64,000 nt of DNA from Candidatus Pacearchaeota archaeon (GCA_023133415.1 JAGLWM010000002.1:24081-88080), one strand, 5' to 3'. Positions 21,672-57,833 are shown, numbered from the stretch's first letter. Notes: generated by a model not told the origin, from the sequence alone. Program-made: numbers and translations.

Positions 21672-22355
21672 TTATTTTTTACTTATCTTTTTCATTTCGT
21701 TAATATTATCGATTAGAGGGTTCATTAGTTTCGCGACGGTTCCGTGGAGATTGTCTAGATCTTTGTGTATCATTGCGGAAGATTCTCCGAATTCCCCTAT
21801 TTTTCCTAGAACTGCTTGTTGGAGTTGCTGAATTGAATTTTCTATTCTTTTTAGTCGGTCATCGATGTCATCAACTTTATTTTGTATTTGATTTTTGAAT
21901 GAGACAATGTCTCCGATTTTTGATTTGTAGTTTTCTAGTTTTTCGGTTGCTATTTGTTCGGCTATTTCAGATATTGTTCCGGCGTCAAAAGATCCCTGTG
22001 GTGCATAGTAGTCTTGTTCGGGATAGGCTTGCGGTGTTTCTTGATAGTATGCTTCTTGAGGTGGCAAGGGTTGAGGTGGCGAGATTTCTGGAGCTTGAGG
22101 CTGTGGCGTTGGGGGTATTTCTTGGGCTGGAGCTTGAGGCTGTGGAGATGGCTGTGGCATTGGTATTATTGAAGGTTGCATCCCTTCGGGAGTTGTTTGA
22201 GTTTCCGGGGGAGCCACAGCATTTTTGATCTTGGCCTGATTTAGGGAATCGTTTATTTCTGAAGGAGAGATTCCTTCATTTTGAAGCTGTGCCATTATTT
22301 CGGTATCAGATTTATTTTGTTGTTGCATTTCTATTACTCGATCAAGTGTTGCCAT
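21672..22355 (-). CDS. P/Q-rich protein with C-terminal coiled coil
   Basis: Start set at Met of MATLDRV. The upstream 17 codons of the track ORF are a translated module-A/B repeat. Confidence 0.5.
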   Translation of the reverse strand: MATLDRVIEMQQQNKSDTEIMAQLQNEGISPSEINDSLNQAKIKNAVAPPETQTTPEGMQPSIIPMPQPSPQPQAPAQEIPPTPQPQAPEISPPQPLPPQEAYYQETPQAYPEQDYYAPQGSFDAGTISEIAEQIATEKLENYKSKIGDIVSFKNQIQNKVDDIDDRLKRIENSIQQLQQAVLGKIGEFGESSAMIHKDLDNLHGTVAKLMNPLIDNINEMKKISKK

Positions 22356-22476
22356 GATTTCTTTCTCTTTAGAAAAGAGAAATTTCTCTCGCGCCGTTCG
22401 GCACACCCCAAATTGCGGAATGCTGGGGCGAGTAGAGAAACTTTCTTTCCAAAACTTCGTTTTGATTTAATTCCAT
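22356..22476. repeat. Composite module-A repeat with embedded module-B core
   Basis: A-left + B-core + A-right arrangement. Confidence 0.8.
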
Positions 22477-22477
22477 C

Positions 22478-22858
22478 TTATTCTTTAGGTTTTGTAGTTT
22501 TTATTTCTTTGTTAATTAATTTTTCGACATCTTTTTTCCGCATAAATTCTAATGGTTGAAAGTCTTTTAGCATTCTTTCAATGACAGCCATTTCTTCTCG
22601 TTTTACGAATTTGTTGAATTCGGTTAGCAGGGAGTTTGTGGTTTTTTTGATTTTTTCTAGGTCTTGTTTTATTTCTTGGTTGTTTTGTTTTAGTTCTTTT
22701 AGTTCATTGTCTGTGTCTTGTCTTGAGGATATTAGGTTTTTTCCTAAGAGGAGGACTCTTTCTCGAATTAGTTTGTTTCGTTCGTCTAGGTCTCGGAGTC
22801 TAGTATTAAAGTCGGAGAGGAGGAATTTTATTTGGCTGTCTTGTGGTAGGTCGACCAT
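22478..22858 (-). CDS. Coiled-coil hypothetical protein
   Basis: 126 aa, heptad-rich. Confidence 0.4.
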   Translation of the reverse strand: MVDLPQDSQIKFLLSDFNTRLRDLDERNKLIRERVLLLGKNLISSRQDTDNELKELKQNNQEIKQDLEKIKKTTNSLLTEFNKFVKREEMAVIERMLKDFQPLEFMRKKDVEKLINKEIKTTKPKE

Positions 22859-25199: not shown

Positions 25200-25414
25200 T
25201 TTGATTTTTTTGGAGAGGTTTTCTGTACGGATAAATTCAGCTTTGCTGGAAAGGTTCACCTCATGGAGAAGTTCATGCTTCGCATGGAGGCTTGGTTGGT
25301 TGAAAAGATTTTTGAATGAAAGAGTTTTTGCGTTTTTATGAGAAAATTGTTTTGGGTTGTAATTGGTGCTGAGCAGGAAGGCTTTGTGTATAAAGTAGCC
25401 TCTGTGTATAAAGT

Positions 25415-25858
25415 CTAGAACTGTAAATTAGCTCCCATATGCTTTGTAACTTCCAAAACTATCTTATCAAAGGTTTTTCCTAAATTAAATTCACCAATAA
25501 ATCTATCAACATCTCCATTTATATGTTCTTTGAATAACCTTGTTGGGGCATCAACTCTTAGTATATCTTTAACAAGTTTTTTTGCCTTATCATTAATCAT
25601 TTCAGCATCAATAGGCAATCTATTTATCTGATTATATGTTCCATGGGGACTAGTAATGGGTATAGCAGTGAAATACTTTTCTCTTTTTATTTTTTCTTTG
25701 TCTGAGAGAACTAGAAATGGATGTCTACTTTTTGTACCCGTATTTAATCCATCAATATTTTTATATTTTCCATCTGTTTGAATATTAACCTTCCTCCCCT
25801 CTAGACAACAATTAAACATTAATACCATTCCCCGTTCTATATTTGGAAAAAGTGGCAT
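25415..25858 (-). CDS. PemK/MazF-like toxin-fold protein
   Basis: RHPFLVLSD...AIPITS resembles the MazF/Kid core. Confidence 0.4.
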   Translation of the reverse strand: MPLFPNIERGMVLMFNCCLEGRKVNIQTDGKYKNIDGLNTGTKSRHPFLVLSDKEKIKREKYFTAIPITSPHGTYNQINRLPIDAEMINDKAKKLVKDILRVDAPTRLFKEHINGDVDRFIGEFNLGKTFDKIVLEVTKHMGANLQF

Positions 25859-25859
25859 A

Positions 25860-26090
25860 TTAAAATATTAAGAATTTTAATTCATTCGGAGATTCTTCTA
25901 TTACATTCCTTGTAACCTTACAGATAGAGGCACCAGAAATAAAAGAATCCATAATCATTGTAGTAAGTGCAAAGGAAGGATATTCTCCAGTCTCTTTATC
26001 TAAAAACTCTTTCATCTTATCGAATAATTCTTTTTCATTTATTTGTTCTTTTTTTTCTATTAACAAAACTTCTTCAAGATACTCACACAT
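25860..26090 (-). CDS. Small hypothetical protein (possible toxin partner)
   Basis: 76 aa. Overlaps the upstream Panacea gene by 8 nt. Confidence 0.3.
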   Translation of the reverse strand: MCEYLEEVLLIEKKEQINEKELFDKMKEFLDKETGEYPSFALTTMIMDSFISGASICKVTRNVIEESPNELKFLIF

Positions 26091-26541
26091 CTAAATACTC
26101 TCCACTTTTTAATTCTTCTAATATCTCTTTTATTTGAGTCTCTTTATCTGAAAAATCTGTATGCTTTTCTTTGATTATTCTTATTATTTCATCTTCGGAA
26201 CAATTTAACTTTTTAAGGTAGTGAATTGAAGCCACAACTTCCAACCAAAAATTTTCTTTCCCATTGATAAAATTTAAAAAATTATTAAATTTATTCTCCA
26301 TAGATTCATCTTCAAATTTTATCTTATCCAAAGATTCAAAATCTACATTAAAACCATCTTTTGTAAGCTGGATTGAATATGGTCCATAATGATACCAATT
26401 AAATTCATATCCGATATTTAAATCAAACATACTCTGAAGTATATATGTGAACTTTTGTAATTTTAATCTGTTTTCAAAAGAAAACATATCAAAAGAATCA
26501 TATTTCCTATTTATTAATCCCGCTATAATATTTGGATTCAT
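26083..26541 (-). CDS. Panacea (DUF4065, SocA/GepA-like) domain protein
   Basis: LKLQKFTYILQ...WYHYGPY matches the Panacea antitoxin domain signature. Confidence 0.55.
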   Translation of the reverse strand: MNPNIIAGLINRKYDSFDMFSFENRLKLQKFTYILQSMFDLNIGYEFNWYHYGPYSIQLTKDGFNVDFESLDKIKFEDESMENKFNNFLNFINGKENFWLEVVASIHYLKKLNCSEDEIIRIIKEKHTDFSDKETQIKEILEELKSGEYLDV

Positions 26542-26655
26542 ATTAAAATTACTTTTATCACCCTTTATAAAATATAATGTATTCTAATGTTTATAAATAT
26601 AATGTATTTTTTCAGGTACCTAAATCTTTAAGTAGTTCAGGAACCTGAATTTACT

Positions 26656-26820
26656 ATGAAGATTCGTAAAGTCTTAGACAAAAAAGTTGGTGAAACGGAA
26701 TACTCAAAGTATCTTGTTACACTCCCAAAGAATATAGTTTTAGAATCAAAACTTTTAGGAGAAGACGTTGAAGTAGTTCTAAAAAACGATAAAATAATTC
26801 TTCAGAAAAAGAAAATCTAG
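26656..26820 (+). CDS. AbrB/MazE (SpoVT-AbrB swapped-hairpin) small DNA-binding protein, 54 aa
   Basis: Not in the ORF track (below 60 aa). LVTLPKNIVLESKLLGEDVEVVLKNDKIIL. Flanked by TTCAGGTACCTGAA-type palindromes. Confidence 0.5.
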   Translation: MKIRKVLDKKVGETEYSKYLVTLPKNIVLESKLLGEDVEVVLKNDKIILQKKKI

Positions 26821-26923
26821 TCTAATTTCTAATTTAAGCATTAAATAAATTCAGGTACCGAAACATTTATATATCTAGCATTTGCTATTCAGGTACCTGA
26901 TATTACTCGGGAATTAAGACAAA

Positions 26924-28165
26924 ATGGAACAAGTATTAAAAACAAAATGGAAGCAAATGAATAGAGAGGAGCGAGGCAGACTACTCTACAACACCGTTAA
27001 AATAGTTAAAACTTCTACAGGTTGGAAAGTCCCTTCTCAAACACGAGGTGGCTCTGGAGACAGATACACTGTTAGATTTAATGGACATAAGCCTAAGTGT
27101 AATTGTCCAGATTGTTATATGAGAAAGAAAAAATGTAAACATATCTATGCAGTAGAGTTTTATATTAAACAAGAAATAAACAAAGAAGGTAGATTAAAAC
27201 AAACAAAGGGAATAAGAGTAACTTACGGGCAAAAATGGAATGCCTATGACAAATCACAAACTAACGAAAAATTAGTTTTTATGAAACTCCTAAAAGATTT
27301 AACAACTTTCGTTGAGCAACCTAAATATAAATTCGGTCGTCCAACTTTACCAATGTCCGAAATGGTTTTTAATTCGGTTATGAAAATCTATTCAACTTTC
27401 TCTCTTAGAAGATTCATGTCAGATAGCAAGATTGCGAAAGAATTTGGCTTGATTAATTTTGTGCCTTGTTATTCTTCAATTGGGCATTTTTTACAAAAAA
27501 AGGGATTGACTCCTGTTTTGATTAACCTAATTAAAACTAGTGCTTCTCCATTAAAAGACGTTGAAACTGATTTTGCTTGTGATGCTTCTGGTTTTTCGAC
27601 TTCAAGATTTGCCAGGTGGTTTGATACAAAATGGGGTAAAGAAAAGAAATATAGAATTTGGTTAAAAGCACACATTTGTTCTGGAGTGAAAACGAATATT
27701 ATAACTTCTGTAGAAATTACAGAGGGTCACGCAAATGATAGTCCTCAGCTTTCTTCATTAGTTCGGCAAACTGTCGAGCGGTTTGAGGTGAGGGAAGTTA
27801 GCTGTGACCGAGCATATAGTTCTAAGCAGAACTTACAGCTCATCGCAGATGAGGGGGCAACCCCCTTCATCCCCTTTAAATCAAATGTAAAAGGAAAACG
27901 TACTGGCGGTGGTGCTTGGAAAAAGATGTATCATTATTTTATGTATAAACATGAAGAATTTCTAAAGCATTATCACAAGCGTTCAAATGTCGAGACTTGT
28001 TTTCATATGATTAAAACTAAATTTAGGGACAATCTCCGAAGTAAAACCCAGACTGCTCAAGTTAATGAATTGCTTTGTAAAATTTTAGCACATAATATTT
28101 GTGTTGTGATTCAGGAAGTTAATGAGCTTGGACTTAGTGGGGAGTTTGTTGTGGAGGAAAAATGA
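26924..28165 (+). CDS. IS4/IS5-like DDE transposase with N-terminal SWIM zinc finger
   Basis: CNCPDCYMRKKKCKH zinc finger. YHKRSNVETCFHMIK fits the Y(2)R(3)E(6)K signature. Acidic DDE residues. Confidence 0.65.
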   Translation: MEQVLKTKWKQMNREERGRLLYNTVKIVKTSTGWKVPSQTRGGSGDRYTVRFNGHKPKCNCPDCYMRKKKCKHIYAVEFYIKQEINKEGRLKQTKGIRVTYGQKWNAYDKSQTNEKLVFMKLLKDLTTFVEQPKYKFGRPTLPMSEMVFNSVMKIYSTFSLRRFMSDSKIAKEFGLINFVPCYSSIGHFLQKKGLTPVLINLIKTSASPLKDVETDFACDASGFSTSRFARWFDTKWGKEKKYRIWLKAHICSGVKTNIITSVEITEGHANDSPQLSSLVRQTVERFEVREVSCDRAYSSKQNLQLIADEGATPFIPFKSNVKGKRTGGGAWKKMYHYFMYKHEEFLKHYHKRSNVETCFHMIKTKFRDNLRSKTQTAQVNELLCKILAHNICVVIQEVNELGLSGEFVVEEK

Positions 28166-29661
28166 TTAAAATCCATATTAATTGATTTGTCCTTAATGAT
28201 CCTCTCAGTTACTTCCCTTAATAATTTTCTTAATTGAAATATTTCTATATTTAGTTGGAATATTCCAATATCTTTATTTTTTTCATATTCTTTTTCCAAG
28301 TAATTATCTAAAGATAAATCTGCACTTCGATCAATTTTATTATAATATAATTTAGAAATTTCTTTCTGTTTTTCTTTTGAAAAATTAGGAATCAAAAATT
28401 TAACTAAAATATCAGGAGTTATCGCTGGGACTGTTCCCTTACATACGTATTTTTTTATAAGTTTTTGAAAAATCTGACTTGAAAAATAACAAAGAACAAA
28501 AATTTTAGTATGTATTTCACCATCAATGAATATCCCAGATGTACTTTGATTAATATATGTTTTTCCGAGAACTTTTTCATCGTAGAAAAATATATCCCCC
28601 ACACTTCCCCTAGATCCAAATATTAAATCTCCATCTTTTAGGGTATTATTCATCTTAGTATGCACCCATAATTCTTTTTGTAATATATTTTTATGGATGT
28701 TTTTTGGACTTAACCACAAATAAGATTCTTGGGACATATTATCTTTCGGATAATAGTAATCTTTTGGGGTTTGTCCAGTTTTAATATCCTCTAATGAAAT
28801 ATGAAAATACCCGCCACTATAATTTCTAATTAAGCTATTAATTTCCTTAAACTCTTCTCCATATAATCCAGTATCCAACCTACCCTCTTTTTTAATTTGT
28901 GAGATTTTTGGATAGTTAAATTTTGAATCATTTTTAATCTGATTTTTAATCAGTTCTTGTTTAATCTCTTGTTCAATTAAATCATTTTTTATTTTAATCT
29001 GATTTTCTTTGTCAATAATATTTTGAACCATGAACGAAACATATTCTTCTATTTTTTTGGGATAGGGGTGATTTTTTTTAGTAGGATAAGGAATATTTAT
29101 ATTTAAGAATCTTTTACCACCACGCCTCATAAGTCCAGCTCTTGGAACCTCTAAGTCACAAGCCTCTTGACCATATATATCCTTTAATAATGCAAATAAA
29201 TAAAATTTATTTATTCCAGGTTTCAATTCTAACTTAAACATATGGCTACTAAAATTATGATTAAGTTTATTTTTAGCTAATGCACATGCACCAATACTTT
29301 TATTGCTTCCAGTAGAAGTATAAATAATATCAAATTTTTGAATGTTTCTAAATTTATTTATTTTGAATGATTTATTCTTTTCGGGATTAATATATTCAAA
29401 ACAATTTGGACATTCAGAGTCTAATAAAAATTGCTCTCCAGTTAGAGATGCAGTTTTTAAATATTTAGAACTTGTATCAAAATCAACAAATTCCTCCTCA
29501 CTCATATCATTACCCTTTCCCACGTCAACCAATAAATCACTAAGTAATCTCATATTGGTATTCTTTAAAATAGTTTTGAAATCGGAAGCACTTAGGGAAC
29601 TCTCTTTATTAAATATTGTAGAAATTTTTACACTTTTCTGATCACTTACATAGCTTTCCAT
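28111..29661 (-). CDS. R-M specificity subunit (HsdS/BcgI-B-like, two TRDs)
   Basis: TRD-terminal motif ITPDILVKFLIPNFSKEKQKEI, central coiled coil. Sits immediately downstream of the MTase gene. Confidence 0.6.
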   Translation of the reverse strand: MESYVSDQKSVKISTIFNKESSLSASDFKTILKNTNMRLLSDLLVDVGKGNDMSEEEFVDFDTSSKYLKTASLTGEQFLLDSECPNCFEYINPEKNKSFKINKFRNIQKFDIIYTSTGSNKSIGACALAKNKLNHNFSSHMFKLELKPGINKFYLFALLKDIYGQEACDLEVPRAGLMRRGGKRFLNINIPYPTKKNHPYPKKIEEYVSFMVQNIIDKENQIKIKNDLIEQEIKQELIKNQIKNDSKFNYPKISQIKKEGRLDTGLYGEEFKEINSLIRNYSGGYFHISLEDIKTGQTPKDYYYPKDNMSQESYLWLSPKNIHKNILQKELWVHTKMNNTLKDGDLIFGSRGSVGDIFFYDEKVLGKTYINQSTSGIFIDGEIHTKIFVLCYFSSQIFQKLIKKYVCKGTVPAITPDILVKFLIPNFSKEKQKEISKLYYNKIDRSADLSLDNYLEKEYEKNKDIGIFQLNIEIFQLRKLLREVTERIIKDKSINMDFNHFSSTTNSPLSPSSLTS

Positions 29662-29663
29662 TT

Positions 29664-31853
29664 TTAATTAATTTTATTTAAATGGAAAGCATTTTTAATT
29701 TCTTCCTCTTGTCTCTTCAAAAATTCTTTAAAATCTTCTCTCAAGCTTGTAAAATCTTCATTACGATTACTAGTTTTTTCGAAAGTATTTTGATCAATTA
29801 TAAATGTTGGACTAAACTGTACAACCCTATTTTTAGTCTTAACCTCATAGCCAATATTTTTAACCTCTTTAGTGAAAACTTCATAATCTGATTTAAGAAT
29901 TTTTTTTATTTCATTAGGTTTAGGCTTATAGGCGATAATTACTGTTGTTGCAACACCTGTTTCTCCAAAGGTGTTTCCAGGCAGATCAAATAGTGCCACA
30001 ATTCGCATTCGGTTGATTATCCATCTTCGGATATTTTTCCATTCTTTTATGGAAGCAATTGAATTAGATAGAACAATCCCCATTCTTCCGCCTTCTTCAA
30101 GTAATTTGTAAGAATTTTCTAAAAATAATACTCCCATATCCATAGACTTCGGTAAATTGCCTGGCTTCCCATCTTTCTTCTTATCTGGTTTTTCTTTATA
30201 TGTTTGATAAAGTTCAATTGTTTCTTTTGGTAAATCCCATTTCCCTTTAGCTCCTGTTTTTAAATCCCTACCCTTACCAAATGGAGGGTTGGTTGCAATA
30301 ACTTTATATTTTTTAATCTCAATATTATTATCACTTAAATTCTCCCAAGTTTCTGGATTAAAATTTTTAGTAGTAAAATATCCTGCTTTCATAATTTTTC
30401 CATTTTCTAATAATTTTTGAGAGAGGGAATCCATTTGTTCAAGAGTTGCTCCTCCATCTCCATTTAGCACCAAGTTTAGTTCTGCAAGTTTTAAGTTACT
30501 GCCCTCTATATCAAAACCATAGAAATGGCTTGCATTATCTGGAAAATCCTTCTCTTTCCTATAAGAATGTCTAAATGCCATCGCTGGGAAATCTGCGATT
30601 CCACAACAGGGATCACAAAGTTCTTCTCCAGGAATAGGATTTAATAATTTGATTATATTTTGCACGACAGGAATAGGGGTAAAAAATTGTCCCTTGTCAG
30701 CTTTTTGTTTTTCATCCCCGAAATTATTAAAAATAATTTGATTAAAACTCTCGCTTTTAGCTTTTAAGATTGCTCTTTGTTGAAACGCTTCAATTAATGC
30801 TATTAAGAATTTTTCATCGTTTGAGTCACTAGATTTAAAATCCTTACTATAATTAAATGAGGGTTTAGATAAAACATTTCCATATTCCCTTTTTGCATCT
30901 TTATATAGTTGATTTATTCTTTCCTTAAAACTTTTCTCTGCTAATCCATCAACTCTTTTTTCTGAAGGTAAAATATAGAATTGTAAATTAGACTTATTTT
31001 TTATACTTCTTTTTTCATCAAAGACTTTCAATGTTAAAAACTCTACTATTAAACTTCTCACAGGACTCTTTGGTTTAATTTTATCATTTTCTCTTTTTAA
31101 AACATGCATCAAGTCTGTAAAGGTACTTTCATCAATAACATCTAAGGAGTCAAATTTTAATTTTGCCAGATTAGAAATACTCTCATTGTTCTCAATAAAG
31201 TCTTTCTGGCAAGGTAGATTAATCAACAAATCTCTATTTTGGATATTTATATCATGTAGCCCTTCCTCTTGCAATTCTCTGTCCTCATAGAATCTTCGCA
31301 AATCAGAATTACCCAACTTTTTTAATATAATTACTTCTTCCTTGTCATCAAAATAAATACCAAAAATCCTATCTTTTGAGGTATTCTTTTCCATCATTGA
31401 GTGCAATTGATTCTCTATAACTGATTGAACATTATCCCCTTGCTTTTTTTTAGCCTCAAAAACAACCAACATCATTTTATTCATTTCTCTGAAATCTTTG
31501 TTTTGTTTTGCTTTTTCATAAGTCTTTAACCATTCTTTCTCTTTGAACACTACTATATCTGCCCTAAGTGGAGTCTTTGTATTTCCTTTTGGCTGGCTAA
31601 ATTCTACACAGATATATTCCTTGTTATATGTCCCAGAATTAACCATGCTCCAAGTCATTCTTGCCCGAAACCATTCTTCAGAAAAATTTCCTTTAGCGTC
31701 TTTTGTTTTTGCCTTTGAGCAAAATGCACTAATATTAAGTTCTTTTTCGTACCAATCTTTATCAATTAAATCTAGTTTTGAATACTTTGACTCAAACTTT
31801 CTAAAATAATCCTGGAATTTTTCATCACTCATCTTCTTCCTCCCAGCAAACAT
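29664..31853 (-). CDS. BcgI-A-like Type IIB R-M subunit: N-terminal PD-(D/E)xK endonuclease (HSDR_N-like) fused to gamma-class N6-adenine methyltransferase
   Basis: RADIVVF...VVFEAKKK (D/ExK). MTase motif I DPCCGIADF and motif IV NPPFG. 729 aa. Confidence 0.65.
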   Translation of the reverse strand: MFAGRKKMSDEKFQDYFRKFESKYSKLDLIDKDWYEKELNISAFCSKAKTKDAKGNFSEEWFRARMTWSMVNSGTYNKEYICVEFSQPKGNTKTPLRADIVVFKEKEWLKTYEKAKQNKDFREMNKMMLVVFEAKKKQGDNVQSVIENQLHSMMEKNTSKDRIFGIYFDDKEEVIILKKLGNSDLRRFYEDRELQEEGLHDINIQNRDLLINLPCQKDFIENNESISNLAKLKFDSLDVIDESTFTDLMHVLKRENDKIKPKSPVRSLIVEFLTLKVFDEKRSIKNKSNLQFYILPSEKRVDGLAEKSFKERINQLYKDAKREYGNVLSKPSFNYSKDFKSSDSNDEKFLIALIEAFQQRAILKAKSESFNQIIFNNFGDEKQKADKGQFFTPIPVVQNIIKLLNPIPGEELCDPCCGIADFPAMAFRHSYRKEKDFPDNASHFYGFDIEGSNLKLAELNLVLNGDGGATLEQMDSLSQKLLENGKIMKAGYFTTKNFNPETWENLSDNNIEIKKYKVIATNPPFGKGRDLKTGAKGKWDLPKETIELYQTYKEKPDKKKDGKPGNLPKSMDMGVLFLENSYKLLEEGGRMGIVLSNSIASIKEWKNIRRWIINRMRIVALFDLPGNTFGETGVATTVIIAYKPKPNEIKKILKSDYEVFTKEVKNIGYEVKTKNRVVQFSPTFIIDQNTFEKTSNRNEDFTSLREDFKEFLKRQEEEIKNAFHLNKIN

Positions 31854-31998
31854 AAACTTTTTTCCCAGCTAAATTCTCAGGTAAATATATTTTAGATGCA
31901 GAATTGCCATTTTTGCTTGGAGCTTTCTCTAAACATCTATTAAAATTAATTTTCTTAAGAACAATTTCACCTTTTATAATTTTTATTTCGCTTTCCAT
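31825..31998 (-). CDS. Small AbrB-like protein (57 aa), possible controller of the R-M operon
   Basis: Not in the ORF track. MESEIKIIKGEIVLKK...KIYLPENLAGKKVYV. Overlaps the start of the A-subunit gene. Confidence 0.35.
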   Translation of the reverse strand: MESEIKIIKGEIVLKKINFNRCLEKAPSKNGNSASKIYLPENLAGKKVYVCWEEEDE

Positions 31999-32090
31999 TG
32001 TAGCTACTAATAGCTTTTAATAGCTACCAACCTTTATAAACATTGTTCAGGTACCGAAACATTTATAAGTTTAAACTACAATAAGTAGCC

Positions 32091-32600
32091 ATGATAAACA
32101 AAGTAAGAAAAATAGCAGAAGATGTCTTTAGCTCACTTGGAAGCGGATATGCCGAAGAGGTCTACGAGAAAGCAATGGAAGTAGGTTTGAGGCTGGAAAA
32201 GATTCCTTACGAAAACCAAAGAGTTCTACCAGTATTTTACAAAAACTTCGCTGTGGGTATGTCTAAGCCTGATTTAATAATCAAAGATACCGAAGGAGGA
32301 GAAAAAATTATTTTAGAACTTAAAGCCACACCATCCGCAACTGGAATGAAAGAAGAGGTTCAATTACAGAAATATCTTCAAACTCTAAAAATGAAAAAAG
32401 GAATTATTATTAATTTCCCTCAAACTAACAAAGATGGTCCAGGTGCAGAGATTGAATTTAAGGAAGTTAGCGATGAGTTAAATAAGTGTGATAAATGTGG
32501 AAAAATTCTTTGTCATGGAGCTGAGTGTGAAACATGTGTTAAGGAAGAAGCTAAAAGATTGAAGGAAGCTGAGAAGAAAGAGAAGGCTGTGGATGAATGA
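32091..32600 (+). CDS. GxxExxY-family (PD-(D/E)xK-like) protein with C-terminal CxxC zinc ribbon
   Basis: LGSGYAEEVYEKAM...IILELKA. Two CxxC pairs. Confidence 0.6.
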   Translation: MINKVRKIAEDVFSSLGSGYAEEVYEKAMEVGLRLEKIPYENQRVLPVFYKNFAVGMSKPDLIIKDTEGGEKIILELKATPSATGMKEEVQLQKYLQTLKMKKGIIINFPQTNKDGPGAEIEFKEVSDELNKCDKCGKILCHGAECETCVKEEAKRLKEAEKKEKAVDE

Positions 32601-32920
32601 ATCAAGTGGACGAATTTTATGGAATTGTTAGAATAATTTTCCTCGTACTAGGTGGTATTCTTATAGGGTTTCTTCTTTGGCACCCTAGTCAGAATGATTA
32701 TGTTAGTAAAATAGATTATAATTTACTTTATCAAGATTATCAAGAATTACAGCAAGAAAATCAAGAGATAAAAGAGGATATTGGAAAGTTATTGATTGAA
32801 TATTATGGGAAACCTATCGTGTGGGATATTATTGGAATTACTAAATATAAAAAAGGTTTGTGTGCTTTAAAAATAGTATTAAAGGAAGAGATTCCATTAA
32901 TAAATAAGTTACCTTGTTAA
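32597..32920 (+). CDS. Small membrane protein
   Basis: Single TM plus coiled region. Inside the mobile element. Confidence 0.35.
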   Translation: MNQVDEFYGIVRIIFLVLGGILIGFLLWHPSQNDYVSKIDYNLLYQDYQELQQENQEIKEDIGKLLIEYYGKPIVWDIIGITKYKKGLCALKIVLKEEIPLINKLPC

Positions 32921-32923
32921 AGA

Positions 32924-33208
32924 ATGAGTATAAATTTAATTGTCTTAGGATTAAGTCTTGATTTTTTCGGAGTTGCTATATTAATATTAGTAACTCTCTT
33001 TGGAACTTGGCATCAAAAAGTTCACACAGCAAAGTGGAGCAAAAAATATTATTGGGAGGGGAGAATATTTGATTTTAGAAAATTTCCTCCAAGATTGAGG
33101 AAAGTTTTGAAATATGGATTCATTCCTCCTAAGCATATGTGGAATTCAGTCGGCTTCTTATTAATTGGTTTAGGCTTCTTGCTTCAAATAATAGGAAATC
33201 TTAGATAA
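32924..33208 (+). CDS. Small membrane protein (2 TM)
   Basis: Inside the mobile element, just before the right TIR. Confidence 0.35.
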   Translation: MSINLIVLGLSLDFFGVAILILVTLFGTWHQKVHTAKWSKKYYWEGRIFDFRKFPPRLRKVLKYGFIPPKHMWNSVGFLLIGLGFLLQIIGNLR

Positions 33209-33300
33209 GTTTCTGTGTATAAAGTAAGCTCTTATTTAGACTTTATACACAAAGCTGAGCAGGAAGATAATTTTATAAAGATTGGACTGTTTAAAACGAT

Positions 33301-33699
33301 ATGATTAAGTTTAGAGATGATAGTCCTAATGCTCGGGCGAAGGAGCTTGAGGGCAAGGTGGAGAGTCTTCTTGCTGATAATAAATGGAAGGAAGGTCAGA
33401 GAATTATGAAGGTAGCTATAAAGACTGCTGAGAGGGGGGATTCTCTTGTTTATGTTAGAGAGTTGAAAGACAAGTATGACTCGATTAAATCAAGTAAAAA
33501 TCCTTATACTGGGGGATTTAGGGATATTCGGTATTTGTTGTTTGGGGTTTTTGTTGTTGGTCTTTTATTTTTGTTTAATAGCATTACTGGCAATGTTGTT
33601 GGTGGCTTAGGGAGAGATAGTGTAGGTTTGGTTGGTTTTATTCTGATGGGTTTGTGTGTCGGTGGGTATTTTTTAGTTAAAAAGGGTAACGGCTTTTGA
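33301..33699 (+). CDS. Hypothetical protein with C-terminal TM pair
   Basis: ORF only. Confidence 0.35.
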   Translation: MIKFRDDSPNARAKELEGKVESLLADNKWKEGQRIMKVAIKTAERGDSLVYVRELKDKYDSIKSSKNPYTGGFRDIRYLLFGVFVVGLLFLFNSITGNVVGGLGRDSVGLVGFILMGLCVGGYFLVKKGNGF

Positions 33700-33780: not shown

Positions 33781-35952
33781 GTGATTATGGTTAGTACTGA
33801 AGATATTTTGAAGAAGTATGGGTCGAAGATAGAGAGGCAGATGAGGGGATATGATGCTTCGAGTGGGAAGCGGAGTTTTAGTAAGAGTTATGAAAAGTTT
33901 CGGGTTTCGATGTTACCAGAGTTTTCACGGTATGAGAGGTGGTGTAAGTCGATGGGGAATTTGTTTGCTATTAAGGTTGGGGAGAAAGATAAGAGGAGGA
34001 TTGACCGGGCGATTGAGATTGCGCATTTGAATGTTTCTACTAGTGAGGTTGTTGTTTTCTCTACGATGTTGTTATTTTTGACTTTGTTTGGGGGAATTTT
34101 GTTATTTACTGCAATTTGGTTATTAACTGGAGTTTTTTCTTTTATGTTTTTATTTTTTATTTTTATTTTTTCAATTTTTTCATTTTTCTATTCATCGAAG
34201 GCTCCGGAGAGATTGGCGGTGAAGTGGCGGCTGAAGGCTTCGAGTCAGATGGTTCCGGCGATTTTGTATATTGTGATTTATATGAAGCATACGAGTAATT
34301 TTGAGAAGGCTGTGGCTTTTGCGGCTGAGCATTTGCAACCACCATTGAGTTTGGATTTTAAGAAGATTTTTTGGGATGTTGAAGTTGGGAAGTTTTCGAC
34401 CATTAAAGATTCGGTTGATAATTATTTGCTCGGTTGGAGGGATTATAGTTTGGAGTTTATTGGAGCGTTTCATTTGATTGAGTCAAGTTTGTATGAGCCA
34501 AGTGAGGATCGGAGAGTGCAGGTTTTGGAGAAGAGTTTGCAGGTTATTCTGGATGGTGTTTATGATAAGATGTTGAAATATACGCATGATGCGAAGGCGC
34601 CGCTGACGAATGTTTATATGTTAGGGATTGTTTTGCCGACGCTGGCTTTGGCTATTTTACCGCTTGCTTCGACGATGCTTGGGGGCGCGATTGCTTGGTA
34701 TCATGTGTTTTTGATTTTTAATGTGTTGGTGCCGTTTATGGTAATTTATATGACGAATGATGTTATGATGAGGAGGCCTGGTGGCTATGGGGAGTCTAGT
34801 TTGCTTGAGAGGAATCCACTTTATTCGAAGTATAAGAGTAGCGTTGGATATTGGAAAGGGTTTTTTTGTGCGTTGCCTTTCTTTTTGATTGGGCTGATTC
34901 CTTTTTTGTGGAGATATACTGATGCGCCACTTTTGATTGGGACGACGCGGGATTATTCTTGGTCGCAATTGGGTTTGGGTTTTTTGGGGGGTGGTGGAGT
35001 TTTTGGAATTTTGACTGATTCTGCTGGGAACTTATCTGGGCCTTTTGGTTCGGGTGCTTTGCTTTTGAGTTTGGGGATTCCGGCTGCTGTTGCCATTGTT
35101 TTTATTGTTGCGTTTAGAGAGAAGACAGAGGAGATTTTGGTTACGAGAAATAAGTATAAGGAAGTTGAGAGCGAGTTTACGTCGTCGCTATTTCAGTTGG
35201 GAAATAGAATTGGGGATGGGTCGCCTGCGGAAATTGCTTTTTTGAAGGTTTCGAGTTCTGTTAAGGGAACTGCGACTGAGGGGTTTTTTAGGATAGTGAA
35301 TGAGAATATTGGGCAGTTGGGGATGAGTTTGGAGAGGGCTCTTTTTGATCCGAAGAGGGGCGCGGTTGTTTTTTATCCTTCGCAGTTGATTGCTACTTCG
35401 ATGAAGATTTTGGTTGAGTCGGTGAAGAAGGGGTTGCAGGTTGCGGCGCGGAGCTTGATGTCGATTAGTGATTATGTTAAAAATATCAAGAAGATTAATG
35501 ATAGGTTGAATGATTTGTTGGCGGATATTATTTCGGACATGAAGTCGAATATGACTTTTTTGGCGCCGTTGTTGTCTGGGATTATTGTTGGGTTGGCTGG
35601 AATGATTACGACGATTCTTGGAACTCTGCATGAGATGTTTTCTTCTGGCGTTTTGACTGGGGAGGGGATTTTAGCCGCTGGAGGTGTTGCTGGAATTTTA
35701 TCGATTTTTGATGTGACGAAGATGATTCCGACTTATTGGTTGCAGATTGCCGTTGGGATTTATTTGATTGAGGTTGTTTTTATTTTGACGTCGACTCTTG
35801 TTACAATTAAGAGTGGGAGGGATCCTTTGCAGGCGACGGCGGAGACTGGGAAAAATTTGAAGGTTTCGATGATTCTATATTTGGTTGTTGCGATGGGGAG
35901 TATAATAGGTTTGACTGTTATTGGGGCTGTTGCTTTGGCTGGGCTTACTTAG
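33781..35952 (+). CDS. FlaJ/TadC-like polytopic membrane platform protein of a type IV pilus/archaellum-like system
   Basis: 723 aa, many TM segments and two cytoplasmic domains. Locus context with ATPase, pilins and peptidase. Confidence 0.5.
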   Translation: MIMVSTEDILKKYGSKIERQMRGYDASSGKRSFSKSYEKFRVSMLPEFSRYERWCKSMGNLFAIKVGEKDKRRIDRAIEIAHLNVSTSEVVVFSTMLLFLTLFGGILLFTAIWLLTGVFSFMFLFFIFIFSIFSFFYSSKAPERLAVKWRLKASSQMVPAILYIVIYMKHTSNFEKAVAFAAEHLQPPLSLDFKKIFWDVEVGKFSTIKDSVDNYLLGWRDYSLEFIGAFHLIESSLYEPSEDRRVQVLEKSLQVILDGVYDKMLKYTHDAKAPLTNVYMLGIVLPTLALAILPLASTMLGGAIAWYHVFLIFNVLVPFMVIYMTNDVMMRRPGGYGESSLLERNPLYSKYKSSVGYWKGFFCALPFFLIGLIPFLWRYTDAPLLIGTTRDYSWSQLGLGFLGGGGVFGILTDSAGNLSGPFGSGALLLSLGIPAAVAIVFIVAFREKTEEILVTRNKYKEVESEFTSSLFQLGNRIGDGSPAEIAFLKVSSSVKGTATEGFFRIVNENIGQLGMSLERALFDPKRGAVVFYPSQLIATSMKILVESVKKGLQVAARSLMSISDYVKNIKKINDRLNDLLADIISDMKSNMTFLAPLLSGIIVGLAGMITTILGTLHEMFSSGVLTGEGILAAGGVAGILSIFDVTKMIPTYWLQIAVGIYLIEVVFILTSTLVTIKSGRDPLQATAETGKNLKVSMILYLVVAMGSIIGLTVIGAVALAGLT

Positions 35953-36019
35953 GCAATGGTTGGATAGGCAATGGTTGGATAGGCAATGGTTGGATAGGCA
36001 ATGGTTGGATAGGCAATGG
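35951..36019 (+). repeat. 15-bp minisatellite (AGGCAATGGTTGGAT)x4.6, followed by GC hairpin GCGCTC-TGTG-GAGCGC
   Basis: Directly visible. Confidence 0.9.
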
Positions 36020-36089: not shown

Positions 36090-36461
36090 TTGATGGTGAG
36101 GGATTTTCGGGATTTGGACGTTTGGAAGAGGGCGTTTTTGTTTGGTAAGGAAATTTATAAGGTGACTTCTGGGTTTCCAAAAAGTGAAGTTTATGGGTTA
36201 ACTTCGCAGCTGAGAAGGGCGGCGGTCAGTATTTCGTCTAATATTGCTGAAGGATGCGGAAGGAGGACAAGTAAGGACTTTGTTTCGTTTTTACATAATG
36301 CGATGGGGAGTATTCGGGAGGTTGAAAATCAGGTTATGCTGGCTGGTGAGGTTGGGTATTTGGAGAAAGTGAAGGCTGAGGAGTTGGTGAAGGAATTGAA
36401 TAATATGGGGAGAATGTTGAATAGGTTTATTGGGCATGTTTCTGGATTGGAGATAGAATAA
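36090..36461 (+). CDS. Four-helix-bundle protein (23S rRNA intervening-sequence protein / Avd-like family)
   Basis: DLDVWKRA...GLTSQLRRAAVSISSNIAEG matches the TIGR02436-type signature. Confidence 0.7.
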   Translation: MMVRDFRDLDVWKRAFLFGKEIYKVTSGFPKSEVYGLTSQLRRAAVSISSNIAEGCGRRTSKDFVSFLHNAMGSIREVENQVMLAGEVGYLEKVKAEELVKELNNMGRMLNRFIGHVSGLEIE

Positions 36462-36850: not shown

Positions 36851-37124
36851 TTTGTTTTAGGAATCTTTATTAATTAGTTTAGTGTTTTATTCTTATGGAA
36901 ATGTAAGCTTATATAAGCTTTCGATTTCATTTTATGAAGGAAGATAAAAATGGAAATGGAGGAGATTGTTAAGATTTTGATTTTTGTGGTTGTGCTGATT
37001 ATAATGATTGGGGGTTTTATTTTGCTTAGTGGTAAGGGTGGGGATTTGATTGAGGGGATTAGGAGTGCTTTGAGGTTTGGACGATGAGCAAAATCGAAGA
37101 TTTTGCAGGTCGCAGGGGTGAAGA

Positions 37125-38414
37125 ATGATTTGTGAAAATAAGGTTGGGGCTGTAAATTGGACTATTGGTAAGTTATTGAATGTTGTTTTGTTGGTTATTG
37201 TTTTGGTTTTGATTATTTATGGGATAACGACTGGGGGATTAAAGCCGTTGATTGATAGTCTTGAGGTGAAGTTTGACGAGGTGCAGATTTTGTTGGGATT
37301 TAAGGAGGCTTTGTATAGTGGTTGTTATAAAACTAAAATTGTGGATTTGGGAGGAGGTGAGGAGTTTTTGGTTAGTTTGGGGATTGTTGGGCGGGATGCT
37401 GTTTTGGAGATTTGTAGAGATGGGGTGTGTAGTATTAATGAGAGTGAGATTGGTGCGTATCGTATTGTTAAGGGAGTTGTTGAGAAATTTGATGATGGGG
37501 AGTGGAGTGTGTGTGGTTTAGTATTTGGTGATAGATTAAGTTCTGTGAAATTTAATTGGGAAATGTATCATAAGGGGGTTGATGTTTTGGAGAATGCTGG
37601 TGTGAAAGATTTGTATAATAGGGGGTTTACTCGGCAGTTTATTTTGTATGGGGATGGGGATGTCTACGCGATTTGGCAGAATGGATATTGGAGAGTTACG
37701 GGGGGGGGTAAAATATCTAATGCTGAGAATTGGGTTAAAGAAGGGGAAAATTGGGTTCTTAAAGATTGGTGTGGTAAAATAATAAAAAAAGTCAAAAATT
37801 ATTATAGTGGAACTGATGATGATGAAGCTATTGATGTGTTTGCCGAAGAGGTTAGAAGGGGATATGATGATAAGGTTTATTGGCAGGAGACGATTCCAAC
37901 AAAACCTGATGTAGAATATATTAGTGGTTTCGGTCATGGAGAAATTATTGGGACGCTTGTAGGTGATATAGGGTGGTTCTTTGATAAGTTGGATGATGAT
38001 GAAGAAGTTGAAAAATTAAAGTTGGAATTTAAGAAAAGAAAAAAAATGTATTTGAACGAGGCGAGACTTTCTGATGACGATGTTAAGAGATTGGGGGATG
38101 CCATTAAGGGTAAAAAGATTAATGTTACGGGTAAAGAATTTGAAGTAGGGGCGGAAGGGACTAGAGAGTTTCCAATTGTTAGTTTTTCTGGAGATGAGAA
38201 GTTTGGGTTAAGACATAGTTTTAATGCTAAAATGAATAGTGACTTTATTCCGGGTGTTAAGTTGAGATATTTCCCAGTTAATCTCGTTAAATGGGGTGAA
38301 TCTGCGTGGAGTGATGTTGGCAATGAAGAATATTATAGATTATATGAAAGAAACTTTAAGGAGGTCTATGAGGCTACTTTGATTAGTCAGTTTTTGAGAG
38401 AGAAATGCAAATAA
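37125..38414 (+). CDS. Large secreted/pilin-like protein with N-terminal TM
   Basis: 429 aa, N-terminal hydrophobic helix. Conserved AGGTCGCAGG motif upstream. Confidence 0.4.
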   Translation: MICENKVGAVNWTIGKLLNVVLLVIVLVLIIYGITTGGLKPLIDSLEVKFDEVQILLGFKEALYSGCYKTKIVDLGGGEEFLVSLGIVGRDAVLEICRDGVCSINESEIGAYRIVKGVVEKFDDGEWSVCGLVFGDRLSSVKFNWEMYHKGVDVLENAGVKDLYNRGFTRQFILYGDGDVYAIWQNGYWRVTGGGKISNAENWVKEGENWVLKDWCGKIIKKVKNYYSGTDDDEAIDVFAEEVRRGYDDKVYWQETIPTKPDVEYISGFGHGEIIGTLVGDIGWFFDKLDDDEEVEKLKLEFKKRKKMYLNEARLSDDDVKRLGDAIKGKKINVTGKEFEVGAEGTREFPIVSFSGDEKFGLRHSFNAKMNSDFIPGVKLRYFPVNLVKWGESAWSDVGNEEYYRLYERNFKEVYEATLISQFLREKCK

Positions 38415-38896
38415 TAAATAAGAGAGGTGCGTTGTTGAGTGAAGGGAGTGTAAAAGTTATCATAGCGGTTGCGGTTGTTGTGGGAATGGTTTATTTATTG
38501 GTCAGTTTATTCTCTCCCGTTTTTGATGAGGCTGATGAGACGGCGAAATCTTATTTTGAGACATTGGAAAGGGCGATTGAGGATGTGGGTGGAGGAAGTA
38601 GTTTTTTTATGTTGGATAATGGGGATGATGATTTGAATTTTTATTTGGTTTATTTTGGGAATACTGTTGAGTTTAGGGAGGATGGGAAAGTGTTTACGCA
38701 TAAGAGAGGCAAGGGGGAATATGTTCTTTGTGTTTGCTCTGAAAATAAGAAGGTTGTAGTTTGTAAATATTGTGAGGAGATGAAGTTGCCTGTGAGGCTG
38801 GAGGGTGGGGGTGATGAATGGATTGTTGGAGAAGGAAAAAGAATGAGTTTATATAAAACGACGGAGGTTTATGATGTATCTGTTAAAGTTGAATAG
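38405..38896 (+). CDS. Pilin-like protein (class III signal)
   Basis: NKRGALLSEGSVKVIIAVAVVVGMV. Confidence 0.5.
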   Translation: MQIINKRGALLSEGSVKVIIAVAVVVGMVYLLVSLFSPVFDEADETAKSYFETLERAIEDVGGGSSFFMLDNGDDDLNFYLVYFGNTVEFREDGKVFTHKRGKGEYVLCVCSENKKVVVCKYCEEMKLPVRLEGGGDEWIVGEGKRMSLYKTTEVYDVSVKVE

Positions 38897-39023
38897 GAAG
38901 GGGGCGATTGTTTCGGATGAGACGATCAAGTGGATTGGGTATCTTGGGCTTCTGGCTGCGGTGAGTTTTGCAATTTGGAAGATTGTTTCGAAGGTGATGG
39001 GTTAATTTTATTAAGTTGTTTTT

Positions 39024-40049
39024 ATGGGTATGTGTATGGATGAAAAGAGTGTGTTTTGTGAAGTGACAGGGGTATCATGTGGTTCGTCCGTGTTGGGAAA
39101 TAAAAAAGGGGACTATAAGTGGGGAATTATGTTGTCGTTGATTTTGGGTCTGATGGTTTTGAGTTTGAGTTTGTATTTTATTTTTCATGAGCTTTGGACC
39201 GAGGAAGATACGGAGAGGCAGATTTGTAGGCAGAGTATTCAGTTGAGGTCGTTGTTGCCAGATGCGACGATTGCGGGTTTTAATGTAGACTCGTTTAAGG
39301 ATGAATATCCGTTAAAGTGTAGGACGCATGTTGTGGAGATTAGTGAGAGGGAGATTAGAGAGGGTGAGGCTGGAAAGATTATTGCTGAGACTATGGCGGA
39401 GTGTTGGGCGCTTTATGATAATGGGGATGCTAGTGCCTTTCCTGCCAAGTTTTTTAAGTCGAGTACGTGTGTTCCTTGTGCTAGGATTCATTTGACGGTT
39501 GAGGCAAAAAAGGAGTTGGGAAGTAAGAAGATTGATATTCGGAAGGCTTTGGATTTGCCGATGGGTAAGGATTATTCGTATTATCTTTATTTGCGAGATT
39601 CAGGGAAAAAGTTTTCGGCGTTTGATTTTGGGAATGAAGTGCCGTTTGATTTAGAAGGTGACGGGTTTTATATTGGGAGTGATCTTACGTTTTGGGAGAA
39701 TGTTATTTTAAAAAATAAGCTTAATAATGGGGAGTTTACGGCGAGGATGAGAACTCTTGATATTTCATTGCCCAGAGTTTTTGATGCTACGAAAGGAGAC
39801 TTGCTGATTAATTATGGGATTGTTACTATTCAAGATGAAGACTTTGGTGATTATATTCCTTATTTGTTTTATTTTCAGACTGAGCAAGGAAATCCGTTTA
39901 ATGAAGTAAGTAAGGATTTTATTTTTAATTTTTGGGATTTGCTTCCGAAGGCTTTGAGTTCTCTTTGGAATGTTCCAGAAAAAGGATTGGATGCGTTTAT
40001 TAAAAGGGATATTGGTTTTTGTGAAGAGTGGGAGGGAATTCCTGCATGA
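39024..40049 (+). CDS. Secreted protein with N-terminal anchor
   Basis: NKKGDYKWGIMLSLILGLMVL. 341 aa. Confidence 0.4.
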   Translation: MGMCMDEKSVFCEVTGVSCGSSVLGNKKGDYKWGIMLSLILGLMVLSLSLYFIFHELWTEEDTERQICRQSIQLRSLLPDATIAGFNVDSFKDEYPLKCRTHVVEISEREIREGEAGKIIAETMAECWALYDNGDASAFPAKFFKSSTCVPCARIHLTVEAKKELGSKKIDIRKALDLPMGKDYSYYLYLRDSGKKFSAFDFGNEVPFDLEGDGFYIGSDLTFWENVILKNKLNNGEFTARMRTLDISLPRVFDATKGDLLINYGIVTIQDEDFGDYIPYLFYFQTEQGNPFNEVSKDFIFNFWDLLPKALSSLWNVPEKGLDAFIKRDIGFCEEWEGIPA

Positions 40050-41377: not shown

Positions 41378-41444
41378 GGGTAGGGTGCAGGTCGGAGGTC
41401 GCAGGTCGCAGGTCGCAGGTCGGAGGTCGCAAAGAAGAGGAGAG

Positions 41445-42002: not shown

Positions 42003-42134
42003 GAATGAAATATGAAACGTCGGTGGTTGATGACACTCTCACGAATTTAAAACAAAAATCAGTTGGGGCAGACCCTCGGTGGTTGGATACGGCTGGATTT
42101 GATTTGTGTAGAAAAAAAATAAGGGAGGTGGAAG

Positions 42135-57420: not shown

Positions 57421-57421
57421 A

Positions 57422-57832: not shown

Positions 57833-57833
57833 A

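Follow-up and report, generated by a model that had tools for sequence, protein, structure and literature searches.

A cargo-carrying archaeal DDE transposon related to IS903 and inserted beside a promoter

Restriction-modification (R-M) systems are known to move, and the vehicles that carry them have seldom been identified. A 64,000-nt stretch of a genome of Candidatus Pacearchaeota, a DPANN lineage (GCA_023133415.1 JAGLWM010000002.1:24081-88080; hereafter, the window) bears on this problem: within a pilus-like locus it holds a segment, here called element 1 (coordinates in Table 1), that carries R-M genes between repeated ends. Is this segment a mobile element, to which kind of transposon does it belong, and how is its site of insertion chosen? 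We conclude, with a probability of roughly 0.85, that element 1 is an autonomous, recently active unit transposon of an archaeal family related to IS903, with the ends, cargo and promoter-adjacent siting described below. That it is a mobile DDE transposon, taken by itself, is nearly certain.

The ends of the segment are sharply marked. The 16-mer GCTTTGTGTATAAAGT occurs exactly at 25381-25396 on the plus strand and at 33240-33255 on the minus strand, and the window contains four matches to it with at most two mismatches, compared with 0.11 expected from shuffled sequence. The 11-mer TGAGCAGGAAG adjoins both repeats, at 25370-25380 and 33256-33266, and has no other exact occurrence in the window. 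Between these ends, G+C content falls to 0.26-0.35, compared with about 0.36-0.46 in the flanks, and the GC skew, which on the host strand is unusually strong (+0.3 to +0.7), changes sign. A first-pass annotation of the sequence had described a complete transposon with 16-bp terminal inverted repeats (TIRs), copies of TGTGTATAAAGT inside each end, a deviating base composition and an R-M cargo; all of this is borne out by the ends themselves, by an intact transposase gene and by the existence of an empty allele.

The empty allele was the outcome of a test proposed beforehand. Contigs were found by exact look-up of the product of the 132-aa gene immediately right of the element, which gave three filled contigs from other samples (L001-L003) and a 1,383-bp metagenomic contig from a sister sample (L004). 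In L004, 215 bp containing a single TGAGCAGGAAG separate the end of the ATPase gene from the 132-aa gene, and alignment with a join of the two window flanks that retains one copy of the duplication is gapless and identical at 1,251 of 1,258 nt (99.4%). With one target copy and no insert, L004 is the element-free allele and proves insertion. The element had been placed within the pilus-like locus, after the ATPase gene and before the genes that follow it; this is correct, and the locus is physically split. Functionally it is probably undisturbed, because the insertion is intergenic and leaves intact both the start of the 132-aa gene and its promoter, composed of a transcription factor B recognition element (BRE) and a TATA box.

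The repeat had also been noticed a third time, at 59605. Positions 59605-59650 match the reverse complement of 33210-33255 at 89% over 46 nt, and this is not a stray copy but the end of a second, 6.4-kb element. Its full length of 6,400 bp was recovered on a longer contig (L005 7901-14300), where its own 401-aa transposase, encoded beyond the window end, is 85% identical to that of element 1. Its R-M set, unlike that of element 1, comprises a 614-aa N6 methyltransferase, a 312-aa S subunit and a 392-aa PDDEXK_1 nuclease, and it further encodes a 96-aa membrane protein. The target-site duplication (TSD), which reads TAAGAAACC on the full copy, immediately precedes the BRE/TATA and start codon of the gene for ribosomal protein S27e (59389-59559, minus strand). 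An empty site was sought via the neighbouring eIF2-alpha gene, and the sole extra contig obtained (L010) ends just before the junction.

These observations bear on whether element 1 could be an immobile relic, or an element moved only in trans, with the polymorphism reflecting an old insertion or a deletion. The anticipated further copies exist as members of a family, delimited below, such as the second element 26 kb away, whereas the exact element was found at only one insertion site in the collections searched, and no excision product was seen, as would suit a relic. Yet the transposase reading frame is full length and retains every invariant residue, the TIRs agree at 16 of 17 positions, the duplication is perfect, the flanks of the filled and empty alleles differ by only 0.6%, and an element with an 85%-identical transposase sits in the same window. 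We therefore consider a relic unlikely.

The family was delimited in scans of one genome per species and of JGI metagenomes, each of which contained more than 430 confirmed transposase relatives, 80 loci being taken from each. Relatives of the transposase number in the thousands, and the best 120 are 64-100% identical to it and about 410 aa long. A boundary finder that required RGCTT..AAGCY termini, a TIR matching at 12 or more of 17 positions and a 9-bp flanking repeat delimited 78 loci as complete elements, 77 of them with an exact 9-bp duplication; together with one element added by hand, the delimited loci represent the 73 distinct sites. The elements measure 1,802-11,371 bp (median 5,627), and only one of the 73 has the size of an insertion sequence (IS; <2.5 kb). 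Their hosts are mainly Pacearchaeota, Woesearchaeota, Nanoarchaeota and Aenigmatarchaeota, joined by metagenome-assembled genomes labelled Methanosarcinales, Methanoperedens and Hadarchaeota and by a few contigs binned as bacteria.

Only the transposase and the ends are conserved throughout the family, and the transposase is the sole gene common to all of the first 23 delimited elements. The termini begin (G/A)GCTTTG.. and form a 17-bp TIR flanked by the 9-bp duplication. Inside the left end, 12-mer repeats in one orientation start at positions 6, 24 and 44 (in 72, 65 and 28 of 72 elements, respectively), and at the right end they are found at positions 6, 32 and 52 (72, 64 and 31 of 72), the inner two inverted relative to the right terminal copy. 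All subterminal copies consequently point the same way along the element and the two ends are asymmetric. The subterminal copies of element 1 occupy left position 24 and right position 32 and are thus among those kept, in position and, on the left, orientation, by most of the family. A conserved accessory gene was considered and rejected: the small gene upstream of the transposase encodes a ribbon-helix-helix, Zn-ribbon, winged helix-turn-helix or AbrB-like protein depending on the member, and such differing DNA-binding folds argue that it is not a conserved partner.

The family evidence also bears on how the borders of element 1 are best drawn. The flanking 11-mer is exact on both sides, as the first-pass annotation had stated, but the duplication proper is most probably 9 bp long. 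The two extra flank bases, T (25370/33256) and G (25380/33266), are identical at both sides of the element, so the window sequence reads equally well as a 9-bp TSD with a TIR matching at 16 of 17 positions (the terminal base, on the repeat strand, being G on the left and A on the right); the empty site, too, is compatible both with 9-bp TSD and 17-bp TIR and with 11-bp TSD and 16-bp TIR. A genuine 11-bp duplication at this copy, with a stagger that varies within the family, would agree with the 11 identical bases and with the longest exact flanking repeat of 10-12 bp in 12 of the first 23 elements. Such cases are, however, expected where a terminal G/C happens to equal the host base (a chance of about 1 in 4 on each side), the duplication is exactly 9 bp at 77 of 78 loci with a 17-bp TIR beginning G/A, and IS903 relatives make 9-bp duplications, all of which renders an 11-bp event improbable. 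The family comparison favours, as the very probable reading for the window copy, the 9-bp TSD GAGCAGGAA with a 17-bp TIR, the apparent 11-bp length being read as terminal bases that match the host sequence by chance.

A direct repeat of 11 bp around foreign DNA is likewise what the att core of a genomic island would look like, in which case TGAGCAGGAAG would represent attL/attR left by site-specific recombination and the inverted repeats would be incidental or regulatory. No integrase or recombinase gene was found among the element open reading frames (ORFs) with Pfam and NCBIfam, and searches with Pfam, NCBIfam and PADLOC gave no match to Cas1 (casposase) or to tyrosine or serine recombinases, while an intact DDE transposase is on board. 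The flanking repeat, moreover, varies in sequence over the 73 elements and yet remains 9 bp long and abuts RGCTT termini, which is the signature of a target duplication rather than of a conserved att site; an island of this type can be set aside with very little doubt. No tRNA gene or Rfam family is present anywhere in the window, and so the element is not tRNA-targeted.

The transposase matches Pfam DDE_Tnp_1 (PF01609; E 1.3e-21), and its best NCBIfam model is NF033579, transpos_IS5_2 (E 1.2e-37). Across 32 aligned homologues, D220, D295 and E357 are invariant, as are Y350-R353-E357-K364, which make up a Y(2)R(3)E(6)K motif, and an N-terminal SWIM-type zinc motif, C59xC61..C71xH73; the Pfam SWIM model covers residues 56-81 (E 0.005) and is also precomputed for several close homologues. 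The enzyme had been labelled a SWIM-DDE transposase, which holds in the form of a DDE_Tnp_1, IS5-type enzyme with a CxC..CxH motif. Residues 105-391 align with the IS903 transposase at 23% identity over about 300 aa (E 3e-12), and the nearest plasmid-borne relatives are annotated as IS5-family or IS5-like transposases. In the predicted structure, a small beta-sheet-plus-helix N-terminal module accompanies an RNase-H-like core, and the best full-length Foldseek match is the Tn5 transposase (TM 0.40); weak matches of this kind confirm only an RNase-H-like transposase fold. A sequence search of the PDB with the transposase profile gave no match.

The IS903-like alignment, the ends, the 9-bp TSD, the annotations and the fold together identify the enzyme as an IS903-type core with an added N-terminal SWIM-type zinc module. 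SWIM domains in transposases are usually at home in the Mutator-like / IS256 superfamily, and membership there was considered and rejected: only DDE_Tnp_1 was found, MULE and Transposase_mut having no Pfam match, and the SWIM-type motif precedes the core here, whereas the C-terminal side would be expected.

The space between the ends is filled with variable cargo. Among 89 cargo proteins of the first 23 elements, surveyed with Pfam and PADLOC, most are R-M components: N6_Mtase (15), Eco57I (11), MmeI_Mtase (7), Methylase_S (5), PDDEXK_1 (5) and HSDR_N_2 (5), with C5 methylase (2), D12 (2), ResIII with N6_N4, GmrSD and HNH being rarer. A DNA methyltransferase or R-M module is carried by 20 of these 23 elements, and tblastn detected a methyltransferase homologue in at least 46 of the 73, usually alongside a nuclease. 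In the remaining elements, Pfam identified N6_N4_Mtase in 11 proteins, D12 in three and MT-A70 in one, as well as MunI, BglII and Mrr nucleases and a ThsB-like TIR protein (TIR here in the sense of the protein domain). Over the delimited elements the methyltransferases belong to at least four classes, and the presence of several classes in a constant chassis indicates that cargo is exchanged within the family. At the extremes stand a bare, IS-like member of 1,802 bp with only the transposase and the ends (L036 7596-9397) and a 9.6-kb member (L025 9686-19278) whose run of eight cargo genes includes glycosyltransferases and no defence genes. Seven predicted viral contigs from IMG/VR (L172-L178) encode clear relatives of the transposase (44-64% identity), and viral contigs gave four further matches to its N-terminal part only; viruses could thus be vehicles between cells.

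In element 1, the central cargo is the pair that had been called Type IIB A+B, and the two proteins indeed constitute a nuclease-methyltransferase fusion and a specificity subunit with two target-recognition domains. The 729-aa protein is matched in Pfam by N6_Mtase (1.4e-25), Eco57I (5.3e-13) and, weakly, HSDR_N_2 (0.0037), and in PADLOC by MTase_II and REase_MTase_IIG, and its translation contains RADIVVF..VVFEAKK (D..ExK), DPCCG and NPPFG motifs. PADLOC Specificity_I covers residues 31-195 and 288-445 of the 516-aa subunit, for which NCBIfam gives a MAD5-like match (5.6e-14). The pair appears to have a BcgI/Type IIB-like architecture, with cleavage on both sides as a prediction only; architecture alone does not distinguish Type IIB from other Type IIG-plus-S arrangements. 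The 57-aa protein passes the cut-off of NF033496, 'DUF2080 family transposase-associated protein' (2e-5; 24.1 bits, cut-off 22), and with the weak MazE/AbrB match of the 54-aa protein accounts for the two AbrB-like regulators expected. The GxxExxY protein was likewise correctly recognized (PDDEXK_3, 2.4e-25; TIGR04256, 9.9e-23), and homologues of it occur in 4 of 23 family elements.

The three-gene operon at 25415-26541 fared differently. Its first-pass labels, Panacea and MazF-like, are not upheld: for the 152-aa ORF Pfam gives no Panacea/DUF4065 match even at E<=1, while PADLOC gives only a partial DarG-like match (2.3e-8, residues 22-61 only) and a PDC-M19A match (6.6e-5), and the MazF-like label comes down to a single sub-threshold PemK_toxin match of the 147-aa ORF (E 0.0023; 18.6 bits, cut-off 23.1). 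To call the operon a toxin-antitoxin module is a guess. The 22-nt BRE/TATA-like repeat TTCAGGTACCGAAACATTTATA upstream of the transposase gene recurs identically at 32046-32067 and, at 77%, at 26611-26632.

What remains is the choice of site. In the reconstructed empty sites, one side of the duplication carries a half-site that, read towards the duplication, has the consensus T.T.TAAAG.TTTC; read outwards, as GAAA..TTTAAA, it resembles an archaeal BRE with a TATA box behind it. Of the 10 consensus positions, 7 or more agree at 84% of sites, compared with 3.5% of random intergenic control positions from the same loci. The motif is one-sided, the other flank being at background composition; it lies left of the element in 29 cases and right in 25, and it is unchanged across end-repeat subfamilies and hosts. 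An outward ORF of at least 50 codons has its ATG 34-36 nt past the duplication at 19 of 73 sites, compared with 2.4% of all positions (p = 7e-15), and where a high-scoring half-site has such an ORF within 90 nt, the start falls at 34-36 in 16 of 31 cases and at exactly 35 in 11. Both elements of the window follow this rule: the 132-aa gene and the S27e gene both have their ATG 35 nt past the respective duplication. The duplication is thus placed at about -36 to -44 relative to a leaderless start codon, with the promoter intact and pointing away from the element, which may itself stand in either orientation. Many window genes have a TATA-like hexamer 27-33 nt before the ATG, as fits leaderless transcripts.

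Two other modes of targeting were considered and rejected. A target that resembles the element end disagrees with a motif that stays constant while the core of the 12-mer varies (TGTGTA, TGTTTA, TGTAAA, TGCCCA, TGTTGC), and a symmetric, IS903-like target disagrees with a motif on one side only. Another possibility is that promoter adjacency arose after insertion, through selection combined with a general preference for A+T-rich DNA, insertions elsewhere having been lethal in tiny, gene-dense genomes and lost. All analysed sites are indeed natural, selected insertions, and, counted from stop to stop, ORFs of 80 aa or more cover about 87% of host flank positions, so that a random insertion would in most cases break a gene. 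Selection of this kind would nevertheless tolerate any intergenic position that spares promoters, whereas the spacing is fixed to about 1 nt, the motif score is reached by only 3.5% of intergenic controls and the pattern holds across hosts and end-repeat subfamilies; we regard selection alone as an improbable explanation. Target choice that is mechanistic and linked to the promoter is the probable one. That the transposase senses the initiation complex rather than the sequence is, in our estimate, less likely than not.

Three sites in contigs labelled bacterial may be recorded here. Two, binned as Ktedonobacteraceae and Chloroflexota (L083 and L084), lack the BRE/TATA-like motif and score 2 and 3 of 10, as would be expected if targeting depends on archaeal promoters, the sample being tiny; the third, labelled Acidiferrales (L047), scores 7 of 10.

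Several points weigh against the overall interpretation or parts of it. The transposase reaches 130 bits where the NCBIfam IS5 cut-off is 140, a deficit consistent with a divergent subgroup, and the SWIM match is below its Pfam threshold (16.7 versus 19.6 bits). The structural model is of moderate quality (mean pLDDT 69), with E > 0.001 for every fold match. No transposition event has been seen directly, the empty allele attesting a polymorphism and not a rate; binding of the 12-mers by the N-terminal domain and cut-and-paste chemistry are argued by analogy only. Finally, the 10-position target consensus was scored on the sites from which it was derived and is partly circular, whereas the ATG-distance test is independent of it, and the association of natural insertions with promoters could partly reflect survivorship.

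IS903 is 1.06 kb long and has one gene and simple 18-bp inverted repeats. The archaeal family shares with the IS903 group a DDE_Tnp_1 core with the D-D-E and Y-R-E-K residues and comparable TIRs, starting GGC in IS903 and (G/A)GCTTTG.. in the archaea; the first 8 nt, GGCTTTGT, of the IS903 end GGCTTTGTTGAATAAATC, read from annotated plasmid copies, are identical to the element termini. The archaeal family differs in its additional N-terminal SWIM-type module of roughly 100 aa, its asymmetric ends with two or three 12-mer repeats each, its 2-10 kb of cargo and its mainly archaeal hosts, IS903 being bacterial. Element 1 accordingly departs from the plan of a compact IS of about 1-1.5 kb with a transposase gene only and simple TIRs. 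The 9-bp TSD of IS903 (PMC2577343 Table 1) is that of the archaeal family, whereas its target preference is the symmetric palindrome WTTYA-N9-TRAAW (PMC2577343 Table 1) and that of the archaeal family is one-sided and archaeal BRE/TATA-like. Element 1 is, in short, an IS903-related DDE transposon turned cargo-carrying, promoter-adjacent element in archaea.

Other systems resemble the family in part. Tn7-like transposons carry variable cargo dominated by defence genes (Benler et al. 2021, PMC8649781). Like the archaeal family, they combine defence cargo with asymmetric ends of several repeats, transposase-binding in Tn7, and 'safe' sites next to conserved features, but Tn7 relies on TnsA/B/C together with a target selector, and its 5-bp duplications lie downstream of specific genes, whereas here a single IS5-type transposase is conserved, the duplication is 9 bp and the target is generic promoter architecture. 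Bacterial R-M units with inverted repeats and 8-bp duplications have been described in a screen from which R-M systems linked to mobility genes were excluded at the outset, the units having no identified transposase and no archaeal R-M system passing the selection (Furuta, Abe & Kobayashi 2010, PMC2853133). Those units share with our elements R-M genes (including a Type IIG-plus-S unit), TIRs, a short duplication and an empty site in a related genome; the archaeal family differs in having its transposase on board and in being defined across dozens of archaeal lineages. The yeast elements Ty3 and Ty1 are long terminal repeat retrotransposons whose integrases contact Pol III factors. They, too, spare coding sequence and insert, in either orientation, at a short and constant distance from a core promoter, whereas the archaeal elements are DNA transposons and their promoter siting is known here from sequence alone.

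In the literature searched, we found no description of the archaeal family, of an association between DUF2080 and transposases or of archaeal ISs that target promoters, and the recent surveys of archaeal mobile elements within that literature make no mention of the family, SWIM, IS903 or passenger genes. The family is apparently undescribed, although a member may already be named in ISfinder. Siting at a fixed distance from BRE/TATA promoters is a mode of target choice that we did not find described for archaeal transposons in the same literature.

A possible course of events can be outlined. The N-terminal domain would bind the 12-mer repeats, and the DDE core would cleave at the termini and join these to a target cut with a 9-bp stagger; the pathway is probably cut-and-paste, as for IS903 and other elements of the IS4/IS5 type. 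The promoter might be recognized either from the BRE/TATA sequence itself or from the binding and bending of its DNA by TBP/TFB. Exchangeable cargo would occupy the interval between the ends, in element 1 a BcgI-like R-M pair, a GxxExxY nuclease-like protein, two small membrane proteins and three genes that may form a toxin-antitoxin module; such cargo probably defends the host and stabilizes the element through post-segregational killing. The broadest version of this proposal, an undescribed family of archaeal DNA transposons that are dedicated R-M and defence shuttles sited via BRE/TATA DNA bound or bent by TBP/TFB, is speculative and, in our estimate, has less than an even chance of being correct. 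If true, it would provide a prokaryotic counterpart of the promoter-targeting retroelements of eukaryotes, and DPANN and methanogen-related archaea would gain a single-protein tool, available as it stands, for insertion near promoters. Genetic tools are lacking for the DPANN archaea, whose genomes are tiny; a single-protein transposon of defined ends, with hundreds of relatives and a presence/absence polymorphism in a natural population, is a candidate for such use. The family also supplies a vehicle for R-M systems, and it makes testable whether a DDE transposase reads promoter DNA or the bound initiation factors.

Table 1. Positions of the two elements, their parts and associated features in the window
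Feature	Coordinates	Strand	Remarks
Transposon 1 (element 1)	25380-33256		7,877 bp; 10 ORFs besides the transposase
TSD, left copy	25371-25379	.	GAGCAGGAA
Left TIR	25380-25396	+	GGCTTTGTGTATAAAGT, 17 bp; terminal 12-mer repeat 1 at 25385-25396
Left subterminal 12-mer repeat 2	25403-25414	+	TGTGTATAAAGT, direct orientation, from element position 24
147-aa ORF, last of three-gene operon	25415-25858	-	Possible MazF/PemK-like toxin (weak)
76-aa ORF, middle of three-gene operon	25860-26090	-	No family match
152-aa ORF, first of three-gene operon	26083-26541	-	Partial DarG-antitoxin-like / PDC-M19A-like match
54-aa AbrB/MazE-fold protein, likely regulator	26656-26820	+	Pfam MazE_antitoxin 2.3e-4, below cut-off
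22-nt BRE/TATA-like promoter repeat	26850-26871	+	TTCAGGTACCGAAACATTTATA; upstream of transposase gene
Transposase, 413 aa	26924-28165	+	DDE_Tnp_1; annotated from 26957 as 402 aa (11 codons later)
516-aa S subunit	28111-29661	-	Two target-recognition domains
729-aa fused R-M protein	29664-31853	-	N-terminal PD-(D/E)XK nuclease and gamma-class N6-adenine methyltransferase
57-aa DUF2080-family protein, head of R-M operon	31825-31998	-	NCBIfam NF033496
169-aa GxxExxY / PDDEXK_3 protein	32091-32600	+	Preceded by second copy of 22-nt promoter repeat
107-aa ORF	32597-32920	+	One hydrophobic segment; no family match
94-aa small hydrophobic protein	32924-33208	+	No family match
Right subterminal 12-mer	33214-33225	+	TGTGTATAAAGT; opposite to right terminal copy; position 32 from right tip
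Right TIR	33240-33256	-	16/17 match to left TIR
TSD, right copy	33257-33265	.	GAGCAGGAA
Host BRE/TATA-like promoter and ATG of 132-aa gene	33266-33303	+	TTTTATAAA at 33271-33279; ATG 33301
TSD of second element	59595-59603	.	GGTTTCTTA
Second element	59604-64000	-	Inverted relative to element 1; cut by window end
118-nt repeat copies	4200-4317, 6168-6370, 7392-7513, 22352-22485, 59215-59332		

Some features of the window lie outside the two elements. Almost all host genes (window 1-64000) are on the plus strand, which shows an extreme and sustained excess of G over C, as at 9001-12000 and 37001-43000 (skew of +0.5 to +0.7, measured over 1 kb). This skew is lost or inverted only in the two transposons and in a block at 56.6-58.2 kb, so that skew alone could serve to detect foreign DNA in this host genome. 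The block (56618-58172, minus strand) lies between the UDG and eIF2-alpha genes, has a G+C content of 0.29-0.31 and reversed skew, and contains four minus-strand genes, two for Nitro_FeMo-Co (dinitrogenase cofactor-binding-like) proteins and two for permease-like membrane proteins, one of them ArsP_1. It has no transposon ends and may be another foreign insert.

Two intergenic repeats are present in the host sequence. A conserved motif of about 40 nt, GGCAGTTCTGCACACCCCAAATTGCGGAGTCTTGGGGCG, occurs in at least six places (4590-4631, 6368-6409, 8171-8212, 22388-22429, 56434-56475, 58484-58525) and has a predicted hairpin, CCCCAAAT..TTGGGG, in which a few changes are one-sided and two are compensatory; Rfam gave no match to it, and a role as terminator, small RNA or protein-binding site is conceivable. 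A longer repeat of about 118 nt, which contains AAAAAAGAAATTTCTCGCAAGTAGAAAAAACTTC..TTCCAAAACT..GTTTTGATTTA, is found in five or more copies with 77-100% identity and often adjoins the 40-nt motif and precedes gene starts.

In the host coding sequence, a 122-aa gene at about 36093-36461 (L001 12793-13161), after the gene for a 721-aa membrane protein, has precomputed matches to Pfam 23S_rRNA_IVP and, weakly, to bAvd, the accessory protein of diversity-generating retroelements. Two in-frame tandem repeats were also noted: ten 12-nt units of AGATGCCAGGTG in a host gene (7693-7860) and four 15-nt units of GTTGGATAGGCAATG at the end of a 723-aa gene downstream of the insertion (35929-36018).

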